A stretch of 64,000 bases of DNA, taken from contig OZ253443.1 of assembly GCA_965261135.1 (NCBI GenBank), forward strand, positions 2,300,391 through 2,364,390. Reading direction: 5' to 3'. Origin of the DNA: Acidimicrobiia bacterium (GTDB lineage Bacteria > Actinomycetota > Acidimicrobiia > Spongiisociales > ZC4RG35). Shown here piece after piece: positions 15,016 through 40,641 of this stretch. The notes under the pieces were generated by a model that was not told the origin of the DNA, made no database searches, and saw nothing but the letters and a program-made list of their open reading frames with translations. The first letter of the stretch is position 1. Each line of letters starts with the position of its first letter. Made by a program: the position numbers and the translations under genes.

Positions 15016-15151
15016 GGATGGAACCTCCCCGACGGGTCTCCACCATACATGGTGTTTAGTGTATGTCAGCCCCGGCCTTTCGCGCCGACACTATTTCCCA
15101 TTATTCTTTTTCCAGCCCCGTTTGGGATTGGGTACAATGGGCACTCCCCGG

Positions 15152-15240
15152 GGGCGAGTGGCGAAATTGGCAGACGCGCAGGATTCAGGATCCTGTGGGC
15201 TTTAACACCCGTGGGGGTTCAAGTCCCCCCTCGCCCACCA
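15152..15240 (+). tRNA. tRNA-Leu(CAG), CCA encoded
   Basis: Acceptor GGGCGAG/CTCGCCC, anticodon loop TTCAGGA, long variable arm, GTTCAAGTC T-loop, ends ACCA at 15240. Confidence 0.96.
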
Positions 15241-15440
15241 CGGTCCGTTAGGGAGTAATGGCCTGCGCGTTAGGGACTTAACCGCTGACGCGCTGATTTT
15301 GCCGTATTTTGGTGGTTTCGGGGGTTCTTTCCCCGTTTCAGAAGGTGGTCTTTGCTGGATCGCGTGGCCTTTAGGGTGCCCCGCTGTCAGGGTTGGGCTT
15401 TTCGGGCGCGGCGAAGCCGACAGTAGGGGTTACTGTCGGC
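15241..15440. repeat. Conserved left end, copy 1
   Basis: TTAGGGAGTAA (15248) and TTAGGGACTTA (15270); GACGCGCTGA; hairpin GCCGACAGTA-GGGGT-TACTGTCGGC (15416-15440); homologous to 37803-37995 and 39759-39947. Confidence 0.85.
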
Positions 15441-15461
15441 GAGAAGGCGGCATCGGTTGGG

Positions 15462-17249
15462 TTAGGGAGGTCCCCGGGGTGACTTGGCCGGAGTGGAGGG
15501 TGCCTCGCTGGGGGGCGTGTCCGTCGGTTCGGTTTCGGGGATGGTCTTTTCGTGTTGTGGTTGGTTTCTGCTGAAGCGGATGGCTTCTGCGATGTTGTGG
15601 GCTATGACTTTGGCGAGGGCGCCGAGGGTGATCGCCATCTGGTTGAAGACGCGGCACCATCCGACTGCGAAGGCGCCTTTGTCGCCGATCATCGAGTTTT
15701 TGGTTTCGCTGTTGTTGCGGCGGCCCTTGTAGCTTTTTGTCCACGCGGGCGTGCCCGAAGGGATTCGTTGGTAGCTGTCGAGTTTTTCGACCGGGACGGT
15801 TACCAGACCTTCACAACAGTATTCGTATTCGTCGTCGATGGCAAGATACGGAACCGGGCTTTTGGTGGGGGTTGCGTTGGAGTTGCGGGTCTTGGCGGAG
15901 GTTTTGACTCTTCCTGCGCATTGGGGGCAGATGAGTTGCACAGCACCGTCCTTGAGGTACCGGTGGACTGTCCACCGCCAGGGAGACCGGTCGACGCACC
16001 AATCTTCGAATGCCTCGCCGGTAAGGTCCGGGGACGGCACCAGGAGTTTTTCGGGTAGCCATGGTGAGAAGAACGACCCCAGATGGCGCATGAGCTGTTG
16101 TTTGTCGTTCCTTCCGACGTATACAGGGACAGGCCTTTCGACTTCGCCGGGGTTGTAGTCCATGACCACGTCCATGCCCTGCTTGTGGAGTTCTCGACAG
16201 AAGGTCTTTCGTTTGTTGGTGTAGGCGCGGTCGGCGATTATATCCTCGATCCCGGGAGCGATTTCTAATGCCCTGTCAACGAGGTCCAGTCCGACCAATC
16301 CGGGATTGGTGGCTCCGGGGACCAGGGCCATGGCGAGGATGAACTTCGGCGGAGCCTTTTTGAAGGCGAGCTTGCGGGGGTCGCCCGCCCACTTGACACC
16401 AGGAACCCCTGTAAGGAGATGGAGGTCATATCCGAGCACAATGCGGGCTTTTTCCCTGTTTGTGGCGGTTTTGTATGTGAGGCGGGCAAAGAAATCGTGG
16501 CTACGGATCATCCTCTTGTCGGAACCGAAAGTGCCGATCTCATAGGTGAAGGGACCAGTCACGGTCGGGAGTTCCGGTTCGGGAAGGTCAGCCTTGTCGC
16601 GTGCTGCAAGCTCGTGCTCGGCCAGAGCGTCCTTTTCCTTCACAAAGGTCTTGGACACCCCCCAAGATTCGAGGACCTTGGCATCTATAGAACCGGCAGT
16701 GATCAATCTCCGATATCTCTTGGGAACGGTTGCCTTCACAAAGGTGTGGCACATCCAGTCCAGATCGAAGATGGCTTCTATCTCTTCGGCCCATTTGGGA
16801 CCGAGAGCCTCTTCGAGACGTTGCATCTGGTCGCATACAGAGTGGTAACTGACCGGAGGCGGGTTGTCTAGGTCCCAGAGTCCCAGTTGGTAGGCAATCT
16901 GGGAAGGGAGACCGTTCAGCACGGCGCACAAATCGGTGCGGCGATAAGACCCCAAGATATTGGCAGCCACGATCGCGGCTAGGAATAGGGCTTCCAGGCT
17001 GATCCGAGACTTGTACCCCGGGTGGTCGCGGAGGCGCCTGTCCAACGACCGGACCCTGCGGTTCTTTCTGATTAGCGCAAGGATTGGCCGGACTTGTTCA
17101 TCGACGGTCCAGATGGGAAATGCGTTGTCGTCGAAAGTCGCAGGGAAGTCTGGCAGGCGCCGCATCTTGTCAAGGAACCGGGCATCGTCGGCGCAGAGCC
17201 GACCCTTCCTAGCGGCCCGTTGGCGGCGGCGGCGAAGCGCACGGGTCAT
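15462..17249 (-). CDS. DDE transposase-like protein (IS4/IS5/IS1182 clan), 595 aa
   Basis: Putative triad GSIDAK (D), IIADRAY (D), YKGRRNNSE (YREK-like E); CPQC...CC putative Zn motif; lies next to the element left end. Confidence 0.75.
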   Translation of the reverse strand: MTRALRRRRQRAARKGRLCADDARFLDKMRRLPDFPATFDDNAFPIWTVDEQVRPILALIRKNRRVRSLDRRLRDHPGYKSRISLEALFLAAIVAANILGSYRRTDLCAVLNGLPSQIAYQLGLWDLDNPPPVSYHSVCDQMQRLEEALGPKWAEEIEAIFDLDWMCHTFVKATVPKRYRRLITAGSIDAKVLESWGVSKTFVKEKDALAEHELAARDKADLPEPELPTVTGPFTYEIGTFGSDKRMIRSHDFFARLTYKTATNREKARIVLGYDLHLLTGVPGVKWAGDPRKLAFKKAPPKFILAMALVPGATNPGLVGLDLVDRALEIAPGIEDIIADRAYTNKRKTFCRELHKQGMDVVMDYNPGEVERPVPVYVGRNDKQQLMRHLGSFFSPWLPEKLLVPSPDLTGEAFEDWCVDRSPWRWTVHRYLKDGAVQLICPQCAGRVKTSAKTRNSNATPTKSPVPYLAIDDEYEYCCEGLVTVPVEKLDSYQRIPSGTPAWTKSYKGRRNNSETKNSMIGDKGAFAVGWCRVFNQMAITLGALAKVIAHNIAEAIRFSRNQPQHEKTIPETEPTDTPPSEAPSTPAKSPRGPP

Positions 17250-18175
17250 GCCCGCAGTGCCTCTCTGACAGCTTCGGTTTCATCGAAGGCGGTCTTGATG
17301 TGACCGAGCAACCCGTCCAAGGTGTTGGCCGACAGCGGACCCGCTACCTGCCTCAGAGCGGCAAGGGGCGTACCCGCCGCCAAGTGAGCAAGAATCCAGG
17401 TGGACCGCGCTCGGCGAAGCACAAGTCCCTCGCCGCTGCCGGGGTCGAGCCTCGCGCAGATGTTGTAAACCAGGTTGCGTCCCCCGGCCTGGATGAACCG
17501 ACCACTCCCGGTTCCCTGAAGGGCTTGACGGACCAGTTCTGTGTGCGGGGGGCGGAAGGGCGTCAAGCGGGAGTGCTTTCCCCTCACCCGCACCGCCAGT
17601 CGCCCGTTGCCCACCTCCTCAATATCCTCGACCTGAGCAACAGCGACCTCTTTGCCGTTCAGTCCCGCTCCCAGGGCGCTGGCCACTATCCACAGCCGCT
17701 CCGTTCGGTTTAGGCGGCCAGGCAGTTTGGCTACCCGCAGGTAGCACTTCTCTTCGGCACCGCCGTAGGGCGAAGCGATTGCGCTTTTGCCTACCTGCGG
17801 CGAAGGGGACGGCCACGCTCCCGGGTTGGCGGCCCGCCCCACAGCTCGCAGGACCCAACGGGCGTTCTCCCGCCAGGTCGTGGCCCGATGAGCGTTCACG
17901 GTCATTGTCCAGTATTCGACATTGTTCGGATTGAGGACGGTGCGGACATCGCTGGTCCCCAAAGAGCGGCTGGCCCAAACCGCCAAACCGGCCGTGCAAC
18001 GAAGAAACCACCGCGCCTTTTCCGGGTTCTTCGGACCCGCAGCCGCTACCCAACTCCGCACCGTGCCCATCAACGGCTCCAACACACGCAGGTCATCGTC
18101 GGTCCACCCGACGGGTTGCCACCGTTCCAACACCCTTGCCATGTCCGGCGCCAACACTGGGACTCGTTTCGCCAT
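17246..18175 (-). CDS. Tyrosine-recombinase-fold protein lacking the catalytic Arg and Tyr
   Basis: GAGLNGKEV...EDI (box A, R to N), VRGKHSR, LRRARSTW (box B), AAGTPL..LRQVAGPLSANTLDGL (box C, no His/Tyr). Its TGA overlaps the transposase ATG (ATGA). Probable start ATG 18175; the ORF track starts at 18190. Confidence 0.7.
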   Translation of the reverse strand: MAKRVPVLAPDMARVLERWQPVGWTDDDLRVLEPLMGTVRSWVAAAGPKNPEKARWFLRCTAGLAVWASRSLGTSDVRTVLNPNNVEYWTMTVNAHRATTWRENARWVLRAVGRAANPGAWPSPSPQVGKSAIASPYGGAEEKCYLRVAKLPGRLNRTERLWIVASALGAGLNGKEVAVAQVEDIEEVGNGRLAVRVRGKHSRLTPFRPPHTELVRQALQGTGSGRFIQAGGRNLVYNICARLDPGSGEGLVLRRARSTWILAHLAAGTPLAALRQVAGPLSANTLDGLLGHIKTAFDETEAVREALRA

Positions 18176-18538
18176 TACACGCCCTCCCACTGCTGATCCT
18201 CAACGGTGATCTCTGACGTTCCGCAACACCCCTCTGACCGGTTCCCACGAACAAACCCGCACCCGGGTAGCACCATCCCAACAGTCACCAAAAACGCGGT
18301 CTGAACACTCAAACCCGTCATGAACCAACGCAGTCGCAACACAACCAGTTGCAATCTCGGGTCGGGACTTGACGCGGTGCGGGAATCCATATAACCCAAG
18401 TGAAGTACAGGGTTCCCCGAATATGCAAACACGGTCGAAACTTCCCTTAAGGACCTGGTCAAAGCAATAGTGTGTTCATTACGATCGACACTACTTTGAG
18501 GGTGGGACACTCCAGAATGCTCGACTACGCTTCACCGC

Positions 18539-18871
18539 ATGCCCCAACCCCGCCAACACCCGATCACATACCTCGCAAAAAACGGTTCCTTCCCGGACGG
18601 CCCTTTCAGACCAAAAACCCCACCGGAGGTCTATCTCGCCGCTGCTTTGGCCAGGCGATTGAAGACGGGCATCCGGTATAACTCCATCCGATCCGTCGCC
18701 AAAAAAGCCGACCTCAGTCCCCAAACCATCATCAACATCCTCAACGGCAAATCCTGGCCAGACCTCCGCACCATCGCCAAACTAGAAAACGCTTTTAATA
18801 GCTGGCTATGGGGTACCGAACACCGCAGAGACTCGTGGACACACCGCAATAACCGCACTGATCGGTCTTAA
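18539..18871 (+). CDS. XRE-family helix-turn-helix regulator
   Basis: SIRSVAKKADLSPQTIINILNGKSWPDLRTIAKLE; divergent from the recombinase-like/transposase operon. Confidence 0.8.
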   Translation: MPQPRQHPITYLAKNGSFPDGPFRPKTPPEVYLAAALARRLKTGIRYNSIRSVAKKADLSPQTIINILNGKSWPDLRTIAKLENAFNSWLWGTEHRRDSWTHRNNRTDRS

Positions 18872-19225: not shown

Positions 19226-22200
19226 CTAGCGGAACCCCATTGCGCAGATAATTGTCGGTTCGGCATGTGTGGTTGTTTGTGGGGGGATGCAGAGCATGCC
19301 GTCTCGCCAAAGGCTTACCACAAGGGCAGCGAGGTCTTTTGGAGAGCGGTCCTTGACGGCTTTAGCCAGTGTCTGTGTGGCGGACTCGCGTAGTGGTCGT
19401 TCATTTATGGCGTCGTGGGCGTTTCGGAGATCGGCCAGGGTGAACAGGAGATTGTCCTCGAAGGTGTCCATGTGGGCATGCAACTCTTGCCATACCCTGC
19501 CACGGACGCCTTGTAATGCGCCGGTGGCTTGGCCTCGTGGAGTACGAAGCGGCCCTTCGAAGGCTGCTGCTGTCAGTTCGTAGTGATCCTTGAGCCGTGG
19601 TAGGGGTGGGGTGGACGGGTCGCACGCCGCGAGAGTTAGTGCTTCTTGGGCTGTCATGCGTCTCTGTTCACCGTCGGGACTCACGAACGCGAACGCGTCG
19701 GAGCCGGTCACTGTTTGGGAATGTACAAGCACACCGCTCCAGTCGCTTCGATCCGGGCTTTGCCGTGTTGAGTGAACAACGTTGGGAAGGGTGCTCGCCC
19801 GTTTTGCAAGTTCAGGGTGCCGCTCTTGGGCTTGGCGCCAGATTTCATATGCCATGGAAACGGGATCGACATCGTCAACGCCGTCTTTGAGCATGTAGTT
19901 AGACGATTCGTCGTAGAGCCCGCAGATGATCTCTCCCTCGCGTTCGTCACCAAAGAACTTCTCGTCGGAACCGAGAAGTTCGGCGTTTTCGACCAAACGT
20001 TCGCGTATGCGCTTCCGGAGGGTGATTACGCCTTCGAGGGTGTTGGACGGCATTAGAGAGTAGAGCAACACTTCGGACGAGGTTTGACCGATGCGGTCCA
20101 CCCGTCCAGCGCGTTGGATGAGTTTCACCAGAGCCCAAGGAAGGTCATAGTTGACGACAATGTGAGCGTCTTGGAGGTTCTGGCCTTCAGAAAGCACATC
20201 GGTGGATACCAGCACTCTCAGTTCGCCGCCGAGGTCCTCCGGCCGTGACCGGTTGGAGACAGGCGAGAAGCGGTGGGCTGTTCTTGTTGGGTTTTCGGAG
20301 TTTCCGGTGACCAACGCCACACCTTCGACACCGCGGCGGCGCAGTTCCTCGGTCACGTATCTGGCGGTGTCTGCGGCTTCGGTGAACACCAGCACCTTTT
20401 CATTGGCGTGCTGCTGGGCGACGAGTTCCTCCAGAGCGTTCAATTTGCCGTCCGTTTCGGGTGTCCAAGTTCCGAAGTTGTCTAGCATCTGGTCGATCAG
20501 ATCCGTGTCGTGCAGCAGGCGTTGTCGGAATTTACTTACGAAAGCGCCGACGGGGGCCCAACGGACGTTCTTGGGTTTGGTGGCTTCGAGACGAGCGTAG
20601 GCTTGTTCTGGGCTGATACCTTCCCGCTTTACTAGTGTCCCTTCGTCGTCCGTGTCGTCTCCGTCGATGTCGGTTTCCACCGGCCACAGTGCGTTGCTGA
20701 CCGAGCCGACCGGTACTGGCAGGTTGTTATCGAGAGCGTGGGACGCAACCAGGTTGCGCAGTCGGTGACGGCGAAGCGTCGCCAGGAACGCAGGCCCGGA
20801 CGACGAGAGCCGTTTGAACATCATGATCCGGTTGAATCCAGAGAGATCCCCGTGGGCTGCTTCCCGAAGGTCTGCCAAGAGTTTTGCCTCGTCGGGTGTG
20901 GCCGGCTGATAGCGGGAGTTCAGGTAGGTTCCCACCTTTGATCGAGGCAGTTTCAGATCTTTAATGGCGTCGAGGGTTGTGCCAGAAGTCATGGGCTTGG
21001 CGGGGTCGCTCTCTGCCATTTCCCGTTCGACCGGCACTGGGATCCGCTTAGGGAAGTAGAACACTGTACCGTCGCCGAAACGCAGGTACTTGCGGCTCTC
21101 GCTGTCGGTGTCTGCGTAGTTGTCTTCCACGAAACGCCGGGTCCGTCTGATCAGGTAGTGAGACATCAGCCTTTGCCAGTCTTCCAAGTGCGCGGACCGT
21201 TTGAACGCGGCCAAGGTCGATGTGCGGCCACGGCAGGCCCGTTCGAAGTCGAGGTCTCCTGCTTCTGCGATGGCCTGCTCGGGCCGGATCCCCAAATCGG
21301 TGTCATTGTCGAGGAACAGCGACAACTGCGCCGCCAGATCGGAGAGGTCCTTGTTGTAGGGGGTGGCTGTCAGTAGTAGAACTTTCGAGTCGTTGTCGGA
21401 AATATATGCTTTCAGCGCCCGATGATCGCGGCGTTTCTCGTTGCGGAGGTTGTGAGCCTCGTCTATGATGACCAGGCGGTGCCGCCGCTCCTCGGGTAGC
21501 AACTTGTGGACCATCGACAGCGACATCACCTCGCCTCGCACCTCGTAGTCATGGAGGTAGCCATCCCACATGTTCTTAAGGTTCTTGGGGCACACCACCA
21601 GCGTTTCATAGCCGTTTTCTTCTTGGAGCAGCCGCGCTACTGCTGTTCCGATCAGTGTCTTCCCCAGCCCTACCACGTCGCCGATCATGGCCCCGTTCTT
21701 CTGAGTGACGATCCTCGCTGCTATCTTCACCGCGGCTGCTTGGAACTCCAACAGTTCCTGCTGCATCGACGCTGGCAATCCGTAACTGATCAGGCCCTCC
21801 CGCGCCTCTTTTGACAGGTGGTAGGCCATTTTCAAATACACGAGATAGGGATCGAGAAGATGCCCTGAGGCCCAGGACTCGTCCAGCACCTCAACAAGGT
21901 GCGGCATCACCTCAAGAGACAGCCGATCATCCCAGCGATCGTTGAACCAGCGAGCGAGCTTCCTGGTTGCGTCAACATCCAGCATGTCCACATTCAACTC
22001 GCCCTGGGTTCGCAACCCAGAATGGGTGAGGTTCGACGAGCCAACATAGGCAACCCGCGGAGCAGCGGTGTCGTCGCGGTGACACAGATACAACTTGGCA
22101 TGCAACCGATGGGCGGTATGCAACTTCACAGCCACATCGCCATCGCTGATCTGGCGGCGCAGAGTCTGCAGGCCCGCTTCGTCGCCGACCACCGGCAAAC

Positions 22201-22519
22201 CAGCCTCTAATTGCTTTCCGAACTCTTTCACGATCTCCGCTCTGTGCTGGACAGCGGTCTTTTGGTCCACCTGGTCGAGTTGCCTTCCCCAAGCCAGTCG
22301 GCGCATCTCGTCCTGAGGTGTCTCCGCCATCCCGACCAGCACCCGCACTTTCGGTTCGCCGTCAGGCGTGTCGGGCAAAAGGTCCACCGCATCGGCTATG
22401 AGATTCCATCCCCTCAGATTGAAATACCCAACAGCCACATCAAGCGTCCGTGACGATGCCAGAGTGGTCAGGAGCGCGTCCTCAACCCTCTCATCGATGT
22501 TGTCCAAAACCAGAGGCAT
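19226..22519 (-). CDS. PLD-nuclease-domain / SNF2-like helicase fusion
   Basis: LHAKLY...YVGSSNLT (HKD-like), DVVGLGKT, IIDEAHN, LLTATP, STDVLSEGQNLQ, VNYDLPW, QRAGRVDRIGQ. Confidence 0.88.
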   Translation of the reverse strand: MPLVLDNIDERVEDALLTTLASSRTLDVAVGYFNLRGWNLIADAVDLLPDTPDGEPKVRVLVGMAETPQDEMRRLAWGRQLDQVDQKTAVQHRAEIVKEFGKQLEAGLPVVGDEAGLQTLRRQISDGDVAVKLHTAHRLHAKLYLCHRDDTAAPRVAYVGSSNLTHSGLRTQGELNVDMLDVDATRKLARWFNDRWDDRLSLEVMPHLVEVLDESWASGHLLDPYLVYLKMAYHLSKEAREGLISYGLPASMQQELLEFQAAAVKIAARIVTQKNGAMIGDVVGLGKTLIGTAVARLLQEENGYETLVVCPKNLKNMWDGYLHDYEVRGEVMSLSMVHKLLPEERRHRLVIIDEAHNLRNEKRRDHRALKAYISDNDSKVLLLTATPYNKDLSDLAAQLSLFLDNDTDLGIRPEQAIAEAGDLDFERACRGRTSTLAAFKRSAHLEDWQRLMSHYLIRRTRRFVEDNYADTDSESRKYLRFGDGTVFYFPKRIPVPVEREMAESDPAKPMTSGTTLDAIKDLKLPRSKVGTYLNSRYQPATPDEAKLLADLREAAHGDLSGFNRIMMFKRLSSSGPAFLATLRRHRLRNLVASHALDNNLPVPVGSVSNALWPVETDIDGDDTDDEGTLVKREGISPEQAYARLEATKPKNVRWAPVGAFVSKFRQRLLHDTDLIDQMLDNFGTWTPETDGKLNALEELVAQQHANEKVLVFTEAADTARYVTEELRRRGVEGVALVTGNSENPTRTAHRFSPVSNRSRPEDLGGELRVLVSTDVLSEGQNLQDAHIVVNYDLPWALVKLIQRAGRVDRIGQTSSEVLLYSLMPSNTLEGVITLRKRIRERLVENAELLGSDEKFFGDEREGEIICGLYDESSNYMLKDGVDDVDPVSMAYEIWRQAQERHPELAKRASTLPNVVHSTRQSPDRSDWSGVLVHSQTVTGSDAFAFVSPDGEQRRMTAQEALTLAACDPSTPPLPRLKDHYELTAAAFEGPLRTPRGQATGALQGVRGRVWQELHAHMDTFEDNLLFTLADLRNAHDAINERPLRESATQTLAKAVKDRSPKDLAALVVSLWRDGMLCIPPQTTTHAEPTIICAMGFR

Positions 22520-22524
22520 GACCG

Positions 22525-25500
22525 CTAGCCCTCGTTCCCGAAGACCATACGATCACGCAGATTCCCCGCCGCCTCGTAGGCATCCTCAACACCCCACAAC
22601 TCCGCCAGCAACAAATCAGCTTCGTTGGTAATGTCACGACACTTGGACAAGTCATAATTCCCCACTATGAGCTTGTTATAAAGCGTCTCTGTGGGATGAT
22701 TCGGAAGTTCTTCTCTAAGTTTGATGGCGAGGCTGGCGAGGCTTCTCCGTCTTATCTGGAATCCCATGTTATCCAACGAGGTATAGGCCAAGCGTTCGAT
22801 GTCGCCTGGAAAGGAGGCCAGTGTACCTCGGTTGACATGGAAAGAATCCCCTAACATCAACCACCAAACACTTCCCCACCTTCCAGCCAACACCAAGAAC
22901 GCCAGATCCCGATGTCGCTCATCCTCAAAACTAAACCAATGCGTCTTAGAGCGAGATGCGACAACCTCCATGGTGGAGGAATCTATCGTGATGGGCTCCT
23001 CCACAAAGAGGCTAGGGGAGTAACTGCAAACCGATTTGAATCCCAACTTGTAACACCCCTTGGCATCTAGCAGGCTCGTGATCGGTTGCTGGCGTTTCAG
23101 CATGTCAACAAAAGCATTTGATAGCTTCCGAGATTTGAGGAAGGGCCATTGATGAAAACGGTCAGCGATTTCGGTTTCGAGGTGGATATATCTTATTTCT
23201 GAGAATAAGGTAGGTCGCTTCTCCGTTCTCCACCGATGACACAAGGTCGTATGCAATCCTCGATGCTGTTGGCCTCCTGAAACCAGAATTGAGTTTCGCA
23301 CATCCGCGGCAAAAAGGCTACTGGGTCGGCTGGCATACGAAGATATCCAAAGCGTCGGGAAGCGGCTGGATAGGTGCCGTCGCAATGGTTGAAAGTCGCG
23401 GCTGAAACACAGGTTGTGCATGACGATCATCGCCATCCGCCCTTGGTCGTTCAACAGCCTCGAGGCTCTCTCGACGCATGCCGCATACAGATCCGGGCAA
23501 TTCTGGGTCTTGTAACCCCGCCATTGGTAACCGAGTTTCTTCCATTGCCTTTTGGAGATGTAGGGAGGATTGCCGATGATCACATCGAAGCCTCCAGTCC
23601 CGTCTTGCCACACCTCGGGGAACTCCGCGAACCAGTGAAACGGGCTATGCGTTTCTTTCCAATCCTCAAAAGACAGAGAAGTGCTGTGCAGTTCATGAAG
23701 GGCTGGGTCTACAACTCTGCGGGCTTCCTCGAACCTGGCAACCAGCAGTTGGCGGGCATCCTCGTCCTGCCAGGCGCGGCCAGCGGTCGCCTGGGCGGAA
23801 GTGAACTCCCGGTATGCCTCTCCGGCACGTTTGGCCGCTTCGGTTGCTTTGGCGATTGCTGGGAAAGGAAGACCGCCGCCGGTGATACGGTCAGCGTCGG
23901 CGGTGTTTGCCAGACCGACCAGGAGGTTTCCTGCTTTGATGTTGAAATCCAAGTCGGGCAGCGGTTCCACCTCGGAAATATCGCTGATCTGAGCAACCAG
24001 TTTCAAGAACAGTCGCAGTTTGGCGATCTCAACAGCTTCCGGCATCAGGTCAACACCGAACAGGTTGTGCAGGCAGATGGTTTTGAGTAGCCAATAGCGT
24101 TCACCTCTATGCTGCCGGGCCTCGCTTAGAAACGATGCGGTGCCGCCCCCTCTGGCTTCGATCTCCGTAGCCCGGTACACAAGCGTCGTATACATCGGTT
24201 CGAGAACATCGATCGCAGCGAACAAAAATGCTCCGGAACCGACTGTGGGATCGCACACTGTCAGGGACCGCAACACTCCGAACGCCGTCTCGCATTCCTG
24301 CAGGGAAACCAACTGGGTCAGGTAGTCATGGATCAGCGTTTCCATGTCAAGGTTCTCGGTTACCGCGTCGTCAATGCTCCAAACCCGGGTCGGGTCGGCC
24401 AATTTCTTCCGCAAGGCGGCAACCCTTTCTCGGCGGTGAGTGATATCGCACCAGCGTTCGCCTGCCAAACCGACATCCAGAGTCGGGTCGGGTGTCTCTG
24501 ACGAGGGCCGTTCCTCTGGGGGCGGTAGGTCCTTGTCGGTTCCGTAAGTCTGGCTGTCATGTATGTATTCATCGTCAGAGTTGGACAGGAGAATGCAGGG
24601 GTCGTCCAACCCCGCGGCTACGAGTCGGTCCACCACCGCTGGAATGATCGCGGTCGCCGCCATGTAGCCGGTCACATCCGGTTTGGTGTAGTAGGCGCCT
24701 TGTTGCTTCTGGTTGACATACTGCTCGAAAATGAACCCGAGGATGTCAGGGTTGATGTCCTTGCCATCGTCATCGTCGAGATCGGGGCGCTCGTCCAGAT
24801 GCCACCGCCACTTGTCGAAGAACACAAAGATATCCTCAAAAGCCTCGTCCTTGATGTTGATGAGGTGGTTGGTTTCGAGTTGGTGCGGCAGGAATATCCC
24901 ACCGTTCACATAGGGAACCGTGCCGATGATCCGTCCAATGTCTGGGTCGCCGTATGCGACTGGAGGGGGCTGCCCCAAACCCTGGTGGAACAAGGGCAAC
25001 AGGAACTCGCGGAAGAACGCGTAGAACTGGTCGTGCCCGAAGTGCTCCCGAACCATGTTGAGCCTGTTGCTCAAATAATGGCCGTCGCCGTCGAGGAAGC
25101 CCTTCTGTTGGATGAAGTAGATGAACATGAGCCGGTTGAGTAACACCGATGCGTACCAGCTCCGTTTCTCGTCGTCTAAGGTCCCCTCGATGTGGTTGAC
25201 GAACACTTTCCGGTGACGATTGAAGGCTGTGTAGAAGGCCTTGGTGACCTTCGCGGCGTTGAACGAGCGCCGTACCCGCTCCAGTACCACCGAGGCGGTT
25301 AGATGTTCCTCTTCGTCGACGCTGAAAGAAGCCTTCCGCAGGCGCTGCATCAGGGCATGGCCGGGTTCACCCCTTCGGTGCTCGTGGTCCACCGGTCGAT
25401 ACCTGACAGCACCTAGCGGTTGCTCAGGCCACAGCCATCTCTGCGCCCCTTCGTTATCGACGAAGATCGTCAACTGGTCTCGGCAACGGCGGCGCAGTTC

Positions 25501-25737
25501 ACGCACCACCCTGTGCTGTTCCGGCCTGTCGGGGAGACCGGTAGGGCATCTCACCTCCCAGGCCGTCACGCCCCGCTTGTCGGCCACCGCCCGGGCGGTC
25601 ATGGAGGTGTCTGGCACCTGAACCTCACGCGACTGGTAGTACGGAGGTGGATTGTCCCACCCCATACTGCGGAACAAACCACTCAGATCGGCACCGTCCA
25701 ACAGGCGTTTGAGCTGCTTGTCAACTCCAACGGCCAT
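22525..25737 (-). CDS. Large N6-adenine DNA methyltransferase (Eco57I / type IIG-like)
   Basis: GAYYTKPDV, VCDPTVGSGAFL (motif I), FGVDL, IKAGNLL, FDVIIGNPPY (motif IV). Confidence 0.9.
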   Translation of the reverse strand: MAVGVDKQLKRLLDGADLSGLFRSMGWDNPPPYYQSREVQVPDTSMTARAVADKRGVTAWEVRCPTGLPDRPEQHRVVRELRRRCRDQLTIFVDNEGAQRWLWPEQPLGAVRYRPVDHEHRRGEPGHALMQRLRKASFSVDEEEHLTASVVLERVRRSFNAAKVTKAFYTAFNRHRKVFVNHIEGTLDDEKRSWYASVLLNRLMFIYFIQQKGFLDGDGHYLSNRLNMVREHFGHDQFYAFFREFLLPLFHQGLGQPPPVAYGDPDIGRIIGTVPYVNGGIFLPHQLETNHLINIKDEAFEDIFVFFDKWRWHLDERPDLDDDDGKDINPDILGFIFEQYVNQKQQGAYYTKPDVTGYMAATAIIPAVVDRLVAAGLDDPCILLSNSDDEYIHDSQTYGTDKDLPPPEERPSSETPDPTLDVGLAGERWCDITHRRERVAALRKKLADPTRVWSIDDAVTENLDMETLIHDYLTQLVSLQECETAFGVLRSLTVCDPTVGSGAFLFAAIDVLEPMYTTLVYRATEIEARGGGTASFLSEARQHRGERYWLLKTICLHNLFGVDLMPEAVEIAKLRLFLKLVAQISDISEVEPLPDLDFNIKAGNLLVGLANTADADRITGGGLPFPAIAKATEAAKRAGEAYREFTSAQATAGRAWQDEDARQLLVARFEEARRVVDPALHELHSTSLSFEDWKETHSPFHWFAEFPEVWQDGTGGFDVIIGNPPYISKRQWKKLGYQWRGYKTQNCPDLYAACVERASRLLNDQGRMAMIVMHNLCFSRDFQPLRRHLSSRFPTLWISSYASRPSSLFAADVRNSILVSGGQQHRGLHTTLCHRWRTEKRPTLFSEIRYIHLETEIADRFHQWPFLKSRKLSNAFVDMLKRQQPITSLLDAKGCYKLGFKSVCSYSPSLFVEEPITIDSSTMEVVASRSKTHWFSFEDERHRDLAFLVLAGRWGSVWWLMLGDSFHVNRGTLASFPGDIERLAYTSLDNMGFQIRRRSLASLAIKLREELPNHPTETLYNKLIVGNYDLSKCRDITNEADLLLAELWGVEDAYEAAGNLRDRMVFGNEG

Positions 25738-26249
25738 CTGTTACCCCACCCTCAAGACAGTGAGTAGCGGCAACAAGGTCGCCGGCCCGAAACGCTCTCG
25801 GCAGCGCTGCCCAAACCCCCTGCGCGTTGGGAATGGCGGAGACGCTTTCGAACCGCCGGATCGGCCACGGTAACGGCTCAGCAGTTTCGCCATCCGGTAA
25901 CGCTCAATCCGCACCCGGAGAGCCTTTACCAACGCCCACGCCTCTCTATGAACTCGCAACGCGGTCAACATCCGCTCTCTTGCCGATAGCTCATCCACCA
26001 CCGCAGAATACATTACACCCAGGCGCGGCAAACTCTCACTTAATGGATCGCAGAACCCTGAAGGAGCAGATCAGCAACCGAATCGACTCCATACAGTCGT
26101 CGTAACCGCCTTGCCACAGCATTGCGAGATTCGGCTATACGCAGGAGGATCCCGTTGGTGATCCCCCTGGCGAACATAATGAGACGGATAAGAGGGACTG
26201 CCCTGCCCTCCGACAATGCCCTCCATGTCGCTCTGCAAGCGGCACGGGC

Positions 26250-27107
26250 TTAGGTCTTTTTGGTAGGCAGAAGGCGTGCTATTGAATCCAGCGTCTGTCT
26301 AGGGTGCTGGGGAGGCTTATCTTCTGGTCGTTTACCTGGTATGAAGGGCAATTGGTGGTCCTGAAGGTATAGAAACCTGCCGAAGAGTCCGGTCGCGAAC
26401 CCTGCATCCTCCTGCAGGGGACCCAATGTCCATATCCGGCAAAGGGCGCGGGCTGCCCCCTGTAGGCAGGCTACCTGGATTCTGGCAAGGCGCGGGTACC
26501 ACTCCCCACCGAACAACCCGGGTTCCTTTTGCATGAGCCGGTTCAAAAACGCGGTGTCTTCTTTGTGTTGATAAATCCACATCTCCAATTCCGACCACCG
26601 ATCTAGAGGACCTCTACTCTGGTTGCCACTCCCGTCTAGCAGAACATCTAGGTTGTGATAGCGACCTCCTTGCCCAAAATCGCCTAAGATGCCGATGATC
26701 ATCCTCCAGTGCTCATCGTCTCGCAAAACCCGTACGTCGTCCGCTATTGCGGGTCTTGACAGAAACACGGTGTCTTTGGTTACTTCTTCCAGAACCAGGT
26801 CCACCAATTTTGGAAGCCTGTGACCGTACTTCTTCCTGATGTGAGCGGAAGTGGGTAGGGCACCATCTCTCTGAAAGAGCAACAGCGCACCGGTGAGTTT
26901 TAGCAATCGTTCATAGCCCTGCGATAGCAGCAGCATGCCGGTAATCCGGTCGTCTACACCGCCATGCCAATCGTCAATGAAATCGATCCCTTTGACTAGC
27001 CATGACATGGCGACCTCGGTCTCCTCGATAAAGGCGATACGCCTTTGGACATCAATCGTCCCGAGTTTCGGGGTATTTTCTCTGTTCACCACAAGGAAGT
27101 TAGTCAA
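26250..27107 (-). CDS. Hypothetical protein, possible HEPN-fold
   Basis: LSQGYERLLK...GHRLPKL...GRYHNLD resembles the HEPN E..LK / H.L..L / RY pattern; start uncertain. Confidence 0.45.
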   Translation of the reverse strand: MTNFLVVNRENTPKLGTIDVQRRIAFIEETEVAMSWLVKGIDFIDDWHGGVDDRITGMLLLSQGYERLLKLTGALLLFQRDGALPTSAHIRKKYGHRLPKLVDLVLEEVTKDTVFLSRPAIADDVRVLRDDEHWRMIIGILGDFGQGGRYHNLDVLLDGSGNQSRGPLDRWSELEMWIYQHKEDTAFLNRLMQKEPGLFGGEWYPRLARIQVACLQGAARALCRIWTLGPLQEDAGFATGLFGRFLYLQDHQLPFIPGKRPEDKPPQHPRQTLDSIARLLPTKKT

Positions 27108-27161
27108 AAGGCATTGGACGGCCTGCCGAGACCAGCGGTTCCACAGGGAAGGATTCTGAGG

Positions 27162-28082
27162 TCATCCCACCCCACTCGCTAAACGTCTGAGTTCTGGCGT
27201 GTCGGGCACGAGCAGCGTCTCTTGGTTCGGCTTGCCGATAATGCTCACCGTGAAGCGGTACTAGCGCTGATGCGCGTAGCCAAGGCCCTTGACAAACGGG
27301 ACTGCGGCACTTCGTTGTAGCAACGGGACGGATTCGATCAGGGGTTCGGCATCGTCGGTGTATACGACCGGTCCATGGGTCACCCACACCAACTGCTTGA
27401 ACGGTGTCTCGACGAGCATCATTTGGCGCTGTTTCTTATGGAACCACTCCTCAAGCGAGACTTTAGGAGGTGGCGTCATCTGAGCGACCGCGCTACCCAA
27501 TTCACGAGCAAACACCGCGGGTTCTCCGAGCGCCGTCACGCAATCGGCCTGGAACTCTCGCTCCAGTGCCATGCGTTCACGCCGTGACTTCGGAGGAAAC
27601 GATGTGCAAAACAGCCAGTCGCTGTCCGGCTTGTAGGTCACCGATCCTGAAGTCACTGCGCCCCACCAGAAGCTGTCCAAGGCTTCAGGATTCCACTTCC
27701 CTAAATGGCTTTGAAGCGACTCTTCATAGACCCCCTCGTCTGTGTCCCTGATGCCCACCCCGTCGCCTTCATACTTGCGGTAGTGCGCCGCGGTTGCCAG
27801 TTTCAACGCATCAGACCGAGTGAGTGCGTGACCCCGTTTGGAAAACTTGACAACCGACCGAGCCTCCTCCAATGCACCTATGGGATCGAGATTGACGGTG
27901 CGGACCAACACTTGATAGGGATACGGCTTGGCTTCAACGAACCCGGACTCCAAGCCAAGTTGCTCACAATCCAAATGCTCCCGCATTTCGTCACTGATCG
28001 AGGTCTCGGCCCGCAAGCCTTCTGCTTTCAGAATTGCCAGGGCATCGCTCGCCTCAAGCGGGACTGGCATTACGGCATTCAT
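27162..28082 (-). pseudogene. Paralog of the N-terminal domain of 28302-30374, interrupted by an in-frame TAG at 27261-27263
   Basis: The ORF ends FVKGLGYAHQR*; the same frame continues YRFTVSIIGKPNQETLLVPDTPELRRLASGVG to TGA at 27162, matching YADQREYRF...TPEL in the neighbour. Confidence 0.7.
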
Positions 28083-28301
28083 GGAATGAACTCAAAGTGG
28101 CTCATAGGACATTAGTTGGGGAGTGACGGTGGATTCAACGACCCAATGAACCCCGCCCTTCCCGAAAGCATGGCACCACCAGTCCTCAGGCCGCCCTTTG
28201 TTCCGTAACATCCAGTTCAAGTTCTCAATGTGGCTGCGGACCCTCGTCACAGGCGACAACCAGCCACTCCGAAGCCAGGGAGACAGACACGGAGATCAGC
28301 G

Positions 28302-30374
28302 TTAGGCAGTTTCCTCGTCACCTTCCGCCGTTCTCAATGCGATGTACTTGACCTGCGACTGGGATGTGCCATCCGGTGAGGTAGCCGTGACCGTGATCAC
28401 TGTGTCTTCGCCGTCAGGCACGGCGACGGTATGGCCTTCGCGGCCAAGACCGTTGCCCGAGGGGTCGATCACGACCGTCGCGTGGGGGTTCATGGTCTCG
28501 ACAAGGAGTGTCACATGGTCGTACCGCACTCGCTGTCGATATGTGCCGGTGAGCCCTTTTCGGACACCGTGCATCTTTGCTACTCCGCCGGGGCCGAGAT
28601 CAACGACGAGCTTCGTTATGCGTGCGTCGTCGGGTCGTGGTTCCACTTCGGCGTTGGCGGCGTCGATCTCGGCCTCGCTCAATTCCCGCGCATTCTTAGT
28701 AGTCACACGGTGGATTTGAGCTGAGCGGGTTGAGCGCCTGTCCACCCGCTCTGTTTCCTCCAGTGCGATTGACGGCTGAGGGGGCACATGGCCTTCGGCG
28801 ACCATGTGGGCGCATGTGAGGAGACCGAGACGGGCCAGGTCGTCGATGAGCGTGTCGGCGATCATGAAACCGTCCTCACAAGACACCTCCTCGCTTCCGT
28901 CATCGGTGGTGAGCCTGTATTGGGCTGTGCCATTTGGCCCGACTGACATCTGCCCTGTCGCGTTCGATCCACTCGGCATCTTGAATGTGACGACGAGCAC
29001 GCTATCGGTCCAGGTGAAGCTCTCAATCGGGTCGACGAAGGTCAGCAGAAGCCGCATCACGATCCATTCGAGGTGGAATGCGGCAGCGCACAGGTCTGCT
29101 GGGATGCCTTCTTCGAGCGCGGTCTGACGAAGAGCCTCGATCGCTGCCGCGAAACGGGCGGTAACTGCGCTCTGCAAAGCATCGCCAGGAGATAAGACGA
29201 TTTGAACCGGCTGAGACAGGCTGTCTTGATCCGAGGCCTCAGATAGTCCGCCAGCCACGTTCTCCATTGTCTCTCCGTTGGAGGCAGACGGAATCTGGTC
29301 TGCGCCTTGGGCCTGCGCCGCCGGTCGGCTGTGCTCGGTCGGCTGCACGGCCTGTACATTCGCGGAAGCGGCATCGCCGCTGTCGATCAGCGTGGTGCGC
29401 ACCCGAGAGAGCAACTCAGGCGTTGATTGCAGGTCGACCACGACATCCTCGGGTTCTGTCTCGGACCACACGACAAACCGATACTCGCGCTGGTCGGCGT
29501 ACCTGGCGTGCTTGAAGAACACAGCCCGCAGCATCCGTTCGAAGTCGTTGGCTGCGCCTGACACATAGATGTGTGGATCGTCCACATAAGCAACCGCACC
29601 GTGGAAGACGCTTACGGTCGGGTGCTCGGTCTGATGCTTGGTGAACGGATGCGTATAGGTAGCTAGTGACCCTAGTGATCCGATCTGCTGTGCGACCATC
29701 ATGGCCAGATGGCGAGCGAATGTCCTCGGGCTTTTGATCGTGGTCACACAGTCGTAGTCGTCGCCTAAGGACTGGAGCCACGCATCCCATTGGTGGTCGT
29801 TCTCCGGTTCGACCGCGGCACACCAAATCCAGCCGTTCTTACCATAGGTGTGCTTGGTCTTGGTGCTCTCCCTGTTCGTAGTCTTGGTGCTCTTTACGGA
29901 ACGGCGTCGTGTCGAACCGATGGCCGCAGCACCGCGGTTCATCTCGTCATTGACTTCCGCAGCACGGCTCAGATCTGCTCTGTCGTCAACGCGAACGGAT
30001 TCGCTCGACTCCTCGCGTCTTGTCACGCCCTCATCGAGATCGCTGATCAAGGTCTCGCCCTGGCTGCGGAATGCCTCGGGCTTGCTAAGACGAATCGTGC
30101 GACAGTGCGCAATCGCGAAACGCCGGGGAGAACCCTTGACCACCACAGGCATCTCCTTCGGCCACCGATAGTCGGCTGCCTGCCCGAGATGAACTGCGAA
30201 GGTCTTGAATAGCGTGCCATCATCGTCAACCAGCATGCCCTCAGCAAAAACCAGGTCTCGCTGGTCACGACCGTCGCAGGATCCGTCGCCGACAACTGAT
30301 GGGGTTATCACGAACGGCATTGTAGGCGTAGCCGAGTCGCCCTGGGTTATGAGTTCCTGCGATAGCCCAGTCAA
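28302..30374 (-). CDS. Multidomain hypothetical protein: uncharacterised N-terminal domain plus C-terminal cadherin-like beta-sandwich
   Basis: N-terminal WIWCAAVEP, PRTFARHL, FHGAVAYVDD, FFKHARYADQREYRF; C-terminal YRQRV.YDHVTL...HATVVI...GEDTVITVTATSPDGT. Confidence 0.7.
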   Translation of the reverse strand: MTGLSQELITQGDSATPTMPFVITPSVVGDGSCDGRDQRDLVFAEGMLVDDDGTLFKTFAVHLGQAADYRWPKEMPVVVKGSPRRFAIAHCRTIRLSKPEAFRSQGETLISDLDEGVTRREESSESVRVDDRADLSRAAEVNDEMNRGAAAIGSTRRRSVKSTKTTNRESTKTKHTYGKNGWIWCAAVEPENDHQWDAWLQSLGDDYDCVTTIKSPRTFARHLAMMVAQQIGSLGSLATYTHPFTKHQTEHPTVSVFHGAVAYVDDPHIYVSGAANDFERMLRAVFFKHARYADQREYRFVVWSETEPEDVVVDLQSTPELLSRVRTTLIDSGDAASANVQAVQPTEHSRPAAQAQGADQIPSASNGETMENVAGGLSEASDQDSLSQPVQIVLSPGDALQSAVTARFAAAIEALRQTALEEGIPADLCAAAFHLEWIVMRLLLTFVDPIESFTWTDSVLVVTFKMPSGSNATGQMSVGPNGTAQYRLTTDDGSEEVSCEDGFMIADTLIDDLARLGLLTCAHMVAEGHVPPQPSIALEETERVDRRSTRSAQIHRVTTKNARELSEAEIDAANAEVEPRPDDARITKLVVDLGPGGVAKMHGVRKGLTGTYRQRVRYDHVTLLVETMNPHATVVIDPSGNGLGREGHTVAVPDGEDTVITVTATSPDGTSQSQVKYIALRTAEGDEETA

Positions 30375-30570
30375 TGGTCACTAATTGTCCTGGCCCCACA
30401 CCCTGTCCCACGGGTGCCACTGGTTGCCGAGTTCCCGGTCGCGATCAGCACCGGGCTCCACTGAGAATGCACCCGTCCCGGGGGATGCAGAAAAAGGATG
30501 GTAGTCGGGATTGAGGATCCACCCGATGCGGGGGTTACAGGCAACGCCGCCTAACCCAAAAGACACCCGC

Positions 30571-31215
30571 TTAACGGGCGGCTTGGCAGTCAGTCAGAGA
30601 ATCCCGCGCCTCGCCCGCGACTGTGTTGAGTGTCGATTTCCATTCTTCGGTTTCCGTGGCGCCGCTCAGACGAATCGTCTTCTCCAGTACCCGCAGAGCT
30701 GGAACAAAAGTATCCACCCGACTACCGTGTCGTCGTTCCAATTCCCCAAGAGCCTCGTTGAGTGATTGGGTTTGGAGCAGCGCCGCGAAATCTTGGCGCA
30801 CCATGAATCGATAGCAGGGGTCGAGGGTCACTGGATACAGGATGCCTTTAGCGATCCGGTCAATACACACGGGGTCACTGCATTTGATTTGGTCGTTGTC
30901 CACCGCAAAGTCAACATCCATCTTTAGTTTGCGGGCTCTCTGGTCCAGGCCCTGCCGAAGGGCCGTGATTTGCTGTTCCCGTTTCTGCTGGTCAAAATCG
31001 CGGGCTTTCTGTCGTTTCACCCACGGGCGAATGTCCTGGTGGTAATGAACAATCACCCAAGCTATCCATCCCACATAGAGAACTGCGCCGGTGGTCGTAG
31101 CGGTTTGGAATCCAGTGGTTCCAGGTCCGCTGAGAAGATGCACAGCGAACAACAGGGCCGTGAATAATGTGGCGAGAGAAATTGTCAGATTGGTGCGATC
31201 AGTGGTGCTACTCAT
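30571..31215 (-). CDS. Hypothetical membrane protein (two N-terminal TM segments)
   Basis: LTISLATLFTALLFAVHLL and GAVLYVGWIAWVIVHY hydrophobic helices; co-oriented with the cargo genes. Confidence 0.6.
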   Translation of the reverse strand: MSSTTDRTNLTISLATLFTALLFAVHLLSGPGTTGFQTATTTGAVLYVGWIAWVIVHYHQDIRPWVKRQKARDFDQQKREQQITALRQGLDQRARKLKMDVDFAVDNDQIKCSDPVCIDRIAKGILYPVTLDPCYRFMVRQDFAALLQTQSLNEALGELERRHGSRVDTFVPALRVLEKTIRLSGATETEEWKSTLNTVAGEARDSLTDCQAAR

Positions 31216-31436
31216 GCATTGCCAGGGTAGATGTTTGGGTCACCGCAAGTCGAACGGGTTCTGTGTTCTCCTTCGGTAATCGAGACTGGGGAAATCGACC
31301 ATCGCCAACCAGGTAAACCTCAACCATCAGACAACGACCTCTCCAACCGGGGTTGAAACGCGCTGAAGGTACCGTCGCTCGGGGGATGGCGATCTCGCTG
31401 TCCAATTGGGTGTTAACGAGCCAGCTTGGCGGCATT

Positions 31437-35900: not shown

Positions 35901-36110
35901 AATGCTGGCCAGAACAGGTAACTCATCCCAAGCACTTCTCTAACTGGTTCCTACAAAAGACCTCGAGCGTACTGGTCAAGCGCCTTACGGAATGGATGGA
36001 TCCGCAAGGGCCTAAGTGCCGTCCGGAGACCACGACAGAGCACCGATAGTGCCGAACCGGGTAGCACAGTAGACCGGCCGGAGGTGTCAGTCACGGCTTT
36101 ACAGGCAGAT

Positions 36111-37689: not shown

Positions 37690-37783
37690 CCGCAAATGTG
37701 GAACAACCCCCCTTTCAAATGTGGAGCACTCCTGGCAACCCCCGCTAGGGTGCTGGTCAGGGGTGGTCACTAACGGACCACCA
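37690..37783. repeat. Conserved right end, copy 1 (end of element 1)
   Basis: CAAATGTGGA at 37693 and 37716 (23-bp period), GGTCAGGGGTGG, TIR, then CCA repeats; homologous to 39668-39758. Confidence 0.85.
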
Positions 37784-39755: not shown

Positions 39756-39758
39756 CCA
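39668..39758. repeat. Conserved right end, copy 2 (end of element 2), plus GCCCACCA junction
   Basis: AAATGTGGA at 39669 and 39692, GCAGGTCAGAGGTGG, TAGCTAACAGCCCACCA; same 52-bp spacing from the second repeat to CCACCA as copy 1. Confidence 0.85.
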
Positions 39759-39969
39759 CGATGCATTAGCGATTTAGGGTCCTGTGCGTTAGCGATTTAG
39801 CGACGGACGCGCCGAATTTCCCTGATTTTGGGGGTTTGTGACCGTTTCGGAGAGTGTTTTGGCTGGTCAGCGGCGGTGTTGTGACAGCCTGGTGGTTGGG
39901 TTAGGTTTTTCGGACGCGGTGAAACCGACAGTAGGGGTTACTGTCGGCGAAGAAGATCGAGAGGGTTGC

Positions 39970-40465: not shown

Positions 40466-40641
40466 TGTAGAAGATCGGAGTTCCCAGAGCCGCTTCTTCT
40501 CATGCTGCGGCGTGTAGTCCCGCACAATCCCGCCATCGGCACCAGCCCAGAGCGACGACCCCTCTGGGCATGGCAATCGGATCCTATTTAACAATGCAAG
40601 TGGGAAGTGCCTACTGGCAATCCACCTCAGAATCCCCGTCC

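Follow-up and report, generated by a model that had tools for sequence, protein, structure and literature searches.

A 64,000-nucleotide (nt) stretch of an Acidimicrobiia genome (GenBank assembly GCA_965261135.1, contig OZ253443.1, positions 2,300,391 to 2,364,390; hereafter, the window) contains a 22.5-kb transposon, termed E1, inserted beside a tRNA gene and carrying, at 17246..18175 on the minus strand, a gene for a 309-amino-acid (aa) protein with the fold of a tyrosine recombinase but without its catalytic residues. The gene is translationally coupled, by an ATGA overlap, to that of a DDE transposase, and the two recur, together with a divergent helix-turn-helix (HTH) gene, as the module of a widespread family of cargo transposons, not annotated before, that target tRNA genes. 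In at least 23 related loci, ranging from Acidimicrobiia to Streptomyces, this module adjoins the 3′ ends of 13 different tRNA species or transfer-messenger RNA. We lean, by a modest degree, toward the view that the dead recombinase partners the transposase, binding DNA and selecting the tRNA-gene targets.

The reading frame, when counted from its ATG, specifies 309 aa; an alternative GTG at 18190, 15 nt upstream, would yield 314 aa. At the other end, positions 17246-17249 read TCAT on the plus strand, i.e., ATGA in the coding direction, such that the TGA stop overlaps the ATG of the 595-aa open reading frame (ORF) at 15462..17249 on the minus strand. The original prediction for this DNA had described such an intact, coupled frame, with three degenerate recombinase boxes and no Tyr near the C terminus, and its particulars are exact: the ORF coordinates agree, the motifs GAGLNGKE (residues 169-176), RRAR (residues 254-257), and AGPLSANTLDGL (residues 278-289) are all present, and Y237 is the last Tyr of the protein, leaving none in the final 72 residues.

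Searches with the 309-aa protein against Pfam, NCBIfam, PADLOC, and PDB sequences returned no significant match. A set of 5.8 billion proteins yielded 65 homologues (E ≤ 1e-16, 34-94% identity), all of them devoid of Pfam domains and labeled “hypothetical protein,” and when 1.84 billion cluster representatives were searched exhaustively with a profile, 2442 matched at E ≤ 1e-3, of which 1630 also passed E ≤ 1e-10; the protein thus represents an unannotated family, for which neither Pfam nor NCBIfam has a model. Pairwise ratios of nonsynonymous to synonymous substitution (dN/dS) are 0.11-0.35 for the recombinase-like gene versus 0.36-0.53 for the transposase, and between distant elements, the recombinase-like proteins are 40-53% identical and the transposases 32-42%. 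The stop/start overlap reads ATGA or GTGA in 19 of the 21 loci scored, and the motif is also visible in the remaining two. Given the 65 homologues, the 2442 cluster representatives, and the low dN/dS, the ORF is not a chance reading frame, and judged by its pattern of substitution, the gene is under purifying selection. That the gene might be a decaying integrase pseudogene beside an unrelated insertion sequence is suggested by its missing catalytic residues and by nothing more; the dN/dS values, the intact ORFs in dozens of loci, the number of related clusters, and the preservation of both the overlap and the gene order from Acidimicrobiia to Streptomyces refute this explanation, whose probability we regard as negligible. 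The earlier impression of a gene that is retained rather than decaying is borne out by a dN/dS below that of the transposase and by the conserved (A/G)TGA overlap.

An AlphaFold2 (AF2) model of the protein, built from a 55-sequence alignment (mean predicted local distance difference test [pLDDT] score of 88.8), has at its N terminus a helical domain (residues 10-116), joined by a linker to a C-terminal domain in which helices are followed by a three-stranded sheet and more helices, the two domains corresponding to the core-binding and catalytic-like domains of a tyrosine recombinase. In a Foldseek comparison with the PDB, the top 50 matches were all tyrosine recombinases (Cre, XerA, XerH, Tn1549 Int, and the integron integrase IntI), with alignments that span both domains over ~300-350 columns and E values down to 2e-7 (Cre, 2e-7). 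Sequence comparisons are far fainter: the sole match of the family profile among PDB sequences is a weak one to box I of XerA (E of 1.2), in which GaGLrGkEi is aligned to GAGLRVSEL, and hhalign against single sequences returned probabilities of 8.9% for XerD and 2.6% for Cre, alignments that serve to fix the register and nothing else.

To locate the catalytic positions, residues were counted per column in the alignment of 55 relatives, with the register set by hhalign of the family profile against Escherichia coli XerD. The nucleophile of XerD, Y279, falls on position 289, which is Leu in 54/55 sequences (L289 in the window copy) and Ile in one, and H270 (His/Trp-III) falls on position 280, which is Pro in 49/55 (P280 in the window copy). 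R148 (Arg-I) corresponds to position 173, where the window copy has Asn, 21/55 relatives have Arg, and the remainder have N, Y, S, L, T, H, Q, C, or K; K172, the catalytic Lys of the beta2-beta3 turn, corresponds to the variable position 201 (N, H, K, R, and others); and H244 (His-II) corresponds to position 251, which is Leu or Phe. R247 (Arg-II) is placed on position 254, an Arg in 46/55, where the His-II-x-x-Arg-II region reads LRRARSTW; the column of R255 is Arg in 52/55 and R257 is invariant, and a shift of three residues would put Arg-II on R257, in which case the His-II position is Leu or Arg. A further 146 representatives were examined, of which 118 were aligned at the nucleophile position; 95 of these have Leu there. 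A Tyr does occur three residues past the nucleophile, at column 292, in 12/55 and 11/110 sequences (the others have His, Asp, or Ala), independently of whether Arg-I is retained, and no conserved Tyr column was found in the C-terminal region of either the 55 relatives or the further representatives.

Because Leu occupies the nucleophile position in 54/55 and 95/118 sequences and the Tyr at column 292 is sporadic, the alignments identify the loss of catalysis as a property of the family and not as a private mutation of the window copy. Were the window copy an individual mutant, its homologues would all carry GLR and a box C Tyr; Arg-I is instead present in 21/55 and a nucleophilic Tyr in 0/55. 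Both the fold and the loss of catalytic residues put forward in the original prediction are therefore upheld, the former by a model whose top 50 structural matches are all tyrosine recombinases and the latter by the replaced Y279 and H270 and the variable R148 and K172. What is invariant in the family is an RxRSTW(L)xAH motif, along with G279, and this pattern of conservation suggests a non-catalytic function, probably contact with DNA.

The 595-aa partner (15462..17249, minus strand) is, on the evidence of its alignment, profile matches, and AF2 model, a distant IS1182/IS4-like DDE transposase. It has 53 relatives, and the window protein itself is recognized by neither Pfam nor NCBIfam. Across an alignment of 38 sequences, D189, D340, and E515 are invariant, as are Y507, R511, and a CxxC...CC zinc motif. 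When members were scanned individually, DDE_Tnp_1 matched 15/38 and DDE_Tnp_1_6 matched 14/38, and the NCBIfam IS1182 model gave weak matches to 21/38 (best E of 7.6e-8), all of these scores lying far under the curated cutoffs. The AF2 model of the transposase (pLDDT of 81.9, predicted template modeling score of 0.82) has Tn5 transposase as its best, if marginal, Foldseek match (E of 7e-3), followed by other RNase H-fold transposases and integrases. The invariant triad, the weak profile matches, and the Tn5 similarity together bear out the original designation of this gene as a transposase.

The target of E1 is tRNA-Leu(CAG), assigned by ARAGORN to 15152..15240 on the plus strand, with its discriminator at 15237 and CCA at 15238-15240; its 3′ end lies 221 bp from the transposase stop. 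A 5-bp direct repeat, ACCAC, the putative target-site duplication, occupies 15237..15241 (plus strand) and recurs at 37780-37784 and 39755-39759; since the Rfam tRNA model covers 15152-15237 over its full length and ends at 15237, the repeat corresponds to the discriminator, CCA, and one further base. We set the ends of the elements by aligning the copies in the window with those in related contigs. The left end (15242..15461, plus strand) begins with the terminal inverted repeat GGTCCGTTAGGGAG at 15242-15255 and contains two direct subterminal repeats, GTTAGGGA(G/C)T(A/T)A, at 15247-15259 and 15269-15281 (GTTAGGGAnTnA, 22 bp apart). The right end (37693..37779, plus strand) contains two CAAATGTGGA repeats at 37693-37702 and 37716-37725 (23 bp apart) and then a conserved GGTCAGGGGTGG motif, and it finishes with a terminal inverted repeat at 37766-37779; read in reverse complement, as GGTCCGTTAGTGAC, this repeat agrees with the left end at 12/14 positions, including all of the first 10. 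E1 is thus delimited as an intact 22.5-kb transposon at 15242-37779, bearing the hallmarks of a DDE transposon in its 12/14 terminal inverted repeats and the ACCAC on both of its flanks, with the recombinase-like gene, the transposase, and the divergent HTH gene grouped at its tRNA-proximal end. The GC content of the window drops from ~0.64 to ~0.57 over roughly 15-45 kb.

A 9-bp flanking duplication (GCCCACCAC) was considered and rejected, as the terminal repeats aligned across lineages share 5 bp and the right end itself finishes in CCC(C). A generic repeat search of 15000-19300 produced no useful terminal repeats, having missed them because the other end is 22 kb off, and Rfam and promoter/terminator scans of the same interval detected nothing beyond the tRNA.

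These ends bear on the question of whether the 309-aa protein might be an active recombinase that uses an unconventional nucleophile to integrate or excise the island, with the DDE protein as a passenger. Such an enzyme could account for the persistence of the invariant R257 and H264, for the Tyr at column 292 in a subset of relatives, and for the location, as tRNA 3′ ends are classic integrase targets. That Tyr, however, is confined to the 12/55 and 11/110 sequences counted above and is replaced by His, Asp, or Ala elsewhere, unlinked to Arg-I; Arg-I, Lys, and His/Trp-III are unconstrained or replaced; the DDE triad of the supposed passenger is invariant; and the elements have the inverted termini and 5-bp flanking repeat that typify DDE transposition. 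We consider an active recombinase very improbable.

To establish how widely the module is distributed, we scanned species-representative genomes and obtained 24 loci (designated here by L numbers, together with further loci from other sources), all in metagenome-assembled genomes of Acidimicrobiia, several of which have 2-3 copies. By tblastn, the recombinase-like gene is followed by the transposase in essentially all 24 loci, with the divergent HTH_3 gene upstream in most, and ARAGORN places an opposite-strand tRNA or transfer-messenger RNA (tmRNA) gene just past the transposase in nearly every locus that is neither truncated nor within an array. Targets in the Acidimicrobiia loci are Leu-CAG, Lys-TTT, tmRNA, Cys-GCA, Ala-TGC, Val-TAC, Met-CAT, Arg-CCT, and Ser-GCT. 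The three-gene module also adjoins tRNA-Leu-CAG, with an ATGA-type overlap, in Streptomyces tateyamensis (L033), and in three distant metagenomic loci, it lies beside tRNA-Ala-CGC, tRNA-Phe-GAA, and tRNA-Thr-CGT; it is present on plasmid pSCL3 of Streptomyces clavuligerus (L032) with no tRNA nearby. Both of these copies, from cultured Streptomyces, are annotated solely as hypothetical proteins. Overall, an opposite-strand tRNA or tmRNA follows the transposase stop at a distance of 190-370 bp, both in the window and in L001, L002, L006-L008, L010-L014, L016, L019, L021, L022, L024, L027, L029, L033, L034, L036, and L038, for which the combined targets are Leu-CAG, Lys-TTT, Cys-GCA, Ala-TGC, Ala-CGC, Val-TAC, Met-CAT, Arg-CCT, Ser-GCT, Phe-GAA, Thr-CGT, and tmRNA. 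Literature searches with incomplete full-text coverage returned no description of this recombinase-like/transposase family.

Insertions occur in one orientation, with the 5-bp repeat beginning at the discriminator base and the tRNA staying intact, and by manual count, the left end begins 5 nt past the last acceptor-stem base in ~14/17 junctions. Two pairs of closely related elements at different targets are informative. In two Aldehydirespiratoraceae genomes, elements at tRNA-Ala(TGC) (L013) and at tmRNA (L014) have left ends that are 98% identical, and their targets share the 3′ sequence CCAGCTCCAC. Similarly, a copy within the tRNA-Met array of L019 and the tRNA-Arg element of L022 agree at 98% identity in their left ends, and the two tRNAs share the T-arm sequence GCAGGTTCGAnTCCTGCCG. 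These comparisons, in which near-identical elements use targets with a shared 3′ sequence or T-arm, suggest that the 3′ portion of the tRNA gene is read in a sequence-specific manner.

Several elements can accumulate at a single tRNA, with tandem arrays of 3-4 elements being observed. When the window was compared with itself, 15233-15968 recurred directly at 39751-40464 (79% identity) and partly at 37694-37995, and left ends of the E1 type begin internal copies at 39760 and 37797; on the basis of these repeats, the window holds three elements in tandem, of which E1 is intact and E2 and E3 are degraded. E2 (37785..39754, plus strand) is a remnant with a left-end-like sequence from ~37797, no transposase, and one membrane-protein ORF, and its right end has two (C/G)AAATGTGGA repeats at 39668-39700 and finishes at 39754. 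Twelve extra bases (CACCAAGACCAA, 37785-37796), which are missing from other junctions, separate the 5-bp repeat from the E2 left end. E3 (39760..40542, minus strand) comprises a left end from 39760 and a truncated transposase (39970-40542), which corresponds to residues 428-595 of the intact copy at 77% identity; a search for the far end of E3 did not locate it. Two adjacent small genes of 134 and 234 aa (40642-41760), just inside E3, may be a toxin-antitoxin-like pair, and at a comparable position, L034 has a DUF433/MerR-like gene.

Elsewhere, the flanking repeat in L001 is ACCAT, which bounds the entire array on the tRNA side and at the junction with the chromosome, and in a second lineage, the terminal repeat, GGGGTCTTCGCG, is perfect over 12 bp, and elements that abut in tandem are separated by 5-nt spacers. 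Spacers at the tandem junctions of L017, L019, and L023 share AC and vary in their last three bases (AGC, AGA, GCA, GGC, and GGT); the variable spacers may be relics of earlier insertion sites that were carried along as neighboring elements moved together.

The roles offered in the original prediction for the 309-aa protein, a DNA-binding adaptor or target selector or an end-synapsis factor, would all be compatible with tRNA-specific insertion. How the protein could contribute to such insertions is best framed by its fixed partnership with the transposase, with which it is co-translated through the conserved (A/G)TGA overlap. In the scheme that we favor, it would be a domesticated, catalytically dead tyrosine recombinase that serves as the obligatory DNA-binding subunit of a two-protein transposition machine. 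Having descended from tRNA-targeting integrases, it would have kept an attB-type recognition of the T-arm and the acceptor 3′ half; it would bind the tRNA gene, probably as a dimer on the T-arm dyad, bend the DNA, and recruit or activate the complex of transposase and element ends. The transposase would then make 5-bp staggered strand transfers ~16 bp from the center of the T-loop, at the discriminator, and the regenerated tRNA end could be hit again, producing first tandem arrays and then defense islands. The part assigned to the 309-aa protein would be that of TnsD/TniQ-TnsF in Tn7-like elements, without TnsC.

Several observations weigh against this assignment. The reader of the tRNA gene might equally be the ~180-aa N-terminal domain of the transposase, and the 309-aa protein is 40-50% identical between elements that use different tRNAs. 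The lineage-specific subterminal repeats, two at the left end and two different ones at the right, offer it alternative binding sites. No clean target switch that tracks a change in the 309-aa protein was found; the best candidate, L021, is degraded, and its comparison with L029 fell through on account of the frameshifted and truncated L021 copy. The 5-bp duplication itself was deduced from terminal-repeat boundaries and flanking repeats, no empty site having been recovered; the CCC(C) of the right end mimics the acceptor stem and blurs the boundary, and some tandem-junction spacers differ in their last 3 nt.

The same repeats invite an explanation in which the dead recombinase is an end-binding or synapsis factor, which binds the subterminal repeats, pairs or bends the ends, and sets their left/right asymmetry, while the transposase reads the tRNA gene. 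The ends are indeed asymmetric, each with two ~12-bp repeats ~22-24 bp apart, and the lineage specificity of these repeats is as expected for the sites of an element-encoded reader; moreover, tyrosine recombinases by nature synapse DNA sites, and high conservation of the 309-aa protein across different targets suits a target-independent role. However, the left and right repeats are unlike each other, making it unlikely that one protein reads both, and the first left repeat overlaps the terminal inverted repeat, where the transposase itself would be expected to bind. Integrases, the probable evolutionary source of the 309-aa family, are typically directed to tRNA genes, and we know of no IS1182/IS5/IS4-type transposase that either needs an end-binding factor or is specific for tRNAs. 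We regard a role at the element ends as doubtful, though the most serious competitor to target selection.

Upstream of the recombinase-like gene, the third conserved member of the module is a divergent gene for a 110-aa Cro/CI-type HTH_3 protein (18539..18871, plus strand; Pfam HTH_3, E of 3.9e-9), presumed to be a regulator. The intergenic region between the two (18176..18538) is a divergent control region, within which the DNA at 18176-18510 is conserved in close relatives. A 74-111-aa ORF there, called in related contigs as a gene (of 74 aa), was rejected as such given that it is conserved only among close relatives, has two open frames, and is absent from the rest of the family; the ORF is probably noncoding, and its pattern of conservation is likelier to reflect regulatory or 5′ leader DNA shared with the HTH gene. 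In L038, an extra 521-aa gene without a Pfam match (6230-7795) is situated between the recombinase-like gene and the transposase.

The presence of this HTH protein also affects the standing of a further alternative, namely that the 309-aa protein is itself a regulator that modulates the transposase, for example by inhibiting it, by conferring immunity, or by switching it between excision and integration. Tight translational coupling would fix its ratio to the transposase, and inactive paralogues frequently act as regulators; but the module already has its separate HTH regulator, arrays of 3-4 elements at one tRNA speak against target immunity, and retention of the complete two-domain fold of a DNA clamp, in which an RxRSTW..H motif is invariant, suggests DNA binding over simple titration of the transposase. 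A regulatory role is, in our estimation, improbable.

Target selection by the dead recombinase thus remains our preferred explanation. A more encompassing proposal, which we hold to be evenly poised between right and wrong, is that of a minimal two-protein site-specific system, widespread in Actinomycetota (~2,400 protein clusters), in which a dead tRNA-type integrase would directly bring the IS1182-like DDE transposase to one chosen tRNA or tmRNA gene, at its discriminator/CCA end, a Tn7-style homing that dispenses with TnsC and TniQ, stacks elements into defense islands, and arose by independent, convergent domestication.

The cargo of E1 (19226..37154, minus strand), annotated with Pfam, NCBIfam, and PADLOC, includes a fusion of HKD(PLD) and SNF2 helicase domains (19226-22519; PADLOC “HKD+Snf2,” E of 1.2e-48; DrmD-like) and a 1070-aa type IIG restriction-methylase (22525-25737; PADLOC, E of 6e-161), which from their matches look like a pair of defense genes. 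A 1142-aa DEAD-box helicase (31437-34865) resembles HamB of the Hachiman system (E of 2e-58), and a 344-aa gene beside it (31437-35900 region), without a family match, could encode a HamA-like partner. The last cargo gene before the right end specifies a trypsin-like protease (Trypsin_2; 36111-37154) with weak similarity to defense protease modules (RT-Protease and LmuA), and several further genes have no family match. Among E1 ORFs of at least 150 aa, Pfam detected no integrase or resolvase and no TniQ, TnsC, or TnsA/B. In other loci, the cargo comprises a Wadjet-like set of DUF2397, DUF2398, SbcC_Walker_B, and DUF3323 (L003) or an AAA_11/AAA_12 helicase with DUF559 (L001 and L002), and we consider the tRNA-targeting elements to be vehicles for defense islands. 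Outside the elements, a 736-aa ORF (8993-11203) contains ~200-bp internal direct repeats at 9096-9706 that may be tandem PASTA-domain repeats; the syntenic gene of L001/L002, upstream of an FtsW/PBP cluster, has Pkinase and PASTA domains called.

These results identify an unannotated protein family and an unrecognized class of large cargo transposons, which appear to account for the tRNA-linked defense islands seen here in Acidimicrobiia and whose module has relatives reaching Streptomyces. If target selection by the 309-aa protein is correct, an integrase has been turned into a non-catalytic DNA-targeting subunit for a DDE transposase at least twice, once as TnsF in Tn7-like elements and once here, with an unrelated and much simpler transposase. 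Such a system, compact and of two genes, would insert DNA site-specifically, and replacement of a single small protein might change its specificity; the Streptomyces relatives would open it to experimental testing and retargeting. For genome annotation, tRNA-adjacent islands that lack an integrase are not necessarily degraded integrative elements.

Among known systems, the transposase component has its nearest relatives in the IS1182/IS5/IS4 groups, as reflected in the weak profile matches (IS1182 in 21/38, DDE_Tnp_1, and DDE_Tnp_1_6), the Tn5 structural match, and a DDE triad accompanied by a Y..R...E signature. To our knowledge, members of these groups are one-gene insertion sequences of 1.3-2 kb that have no recombinase-like partner, no cargo, and no tRNA specificity. 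The 309-aa protein, for its part, shares with the tRNA-targeting tyrosine integrases of actinobacterial elements and phages (of the pSAM2 and SLP1 type) its fold, its class of target (the 3′ part of tRNA and tmRNA genes), and the position of its gene at the tRNA-proximal end of the island, and such integrases are its probable evolutionary source. They differ in having kept the R-K-H-R-H/W-Y set and in recombining attP with attB through a shared core, whereas in the element described here, Leu occupies the nucleophile position, and a DDE transposase is accompanied by inverted terminal repeats and a 5-bp flanking repeat.

In its proposed mode of insertion, the element recalls Tn7 with TnsD and the CRISPR-associated transposons whose TnsD/TniQ proteins home downstream of tRNA genes: a dedicated DNA-binding selector places the transposon at a fixed distance and in a fixed orientation beside an undisrupted, conserved, essential gene, with a 5-bp duplication and a cargo rich in defense genes. 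The selector in those systems is of an unrelated fold, and it operates with an rve/TnsB-type transposase, TnsA, and the AAA+ protein TnsC, none of which are present here. The closest analogue is TnsF of Tn6022, although the 309-aa protein is no TnsF, being set apart by the described architecture of TnsF. The tyrosine-recombinase domain of TnsF is inactivated; the protein binds comM and steers a Tn7-like machine there by way of TniQ, with which it shares an operon, and thence TnsC and TnsAB. At 498 aa, TnsF combines zinc fingers at its N terminus with a tandem pair of core-binding domains and a partial catalytic domain (Faure et al. 2023, Mol Cell; PMC10293859). The protein of E1 has 309 aa, a single core-binding domain, a complete catalytic-like domain, and no zinc fingers, and its element, which is devoid of TniQ, TnsC, and TnsA, relies on a single IS1182/IS4-like transposase and targets the 3′ ends of tRNA and tmRNA genes, not comM. 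Common to both are a transposon-encoded, inactivated tyrosine-recombinase domain, which in E1 would likewise direct the transposase to a chromosomal attachment site, an operon in which its gene overlaps that of its partner, and DDE transposition in one orientation with a 5-bp duplication.

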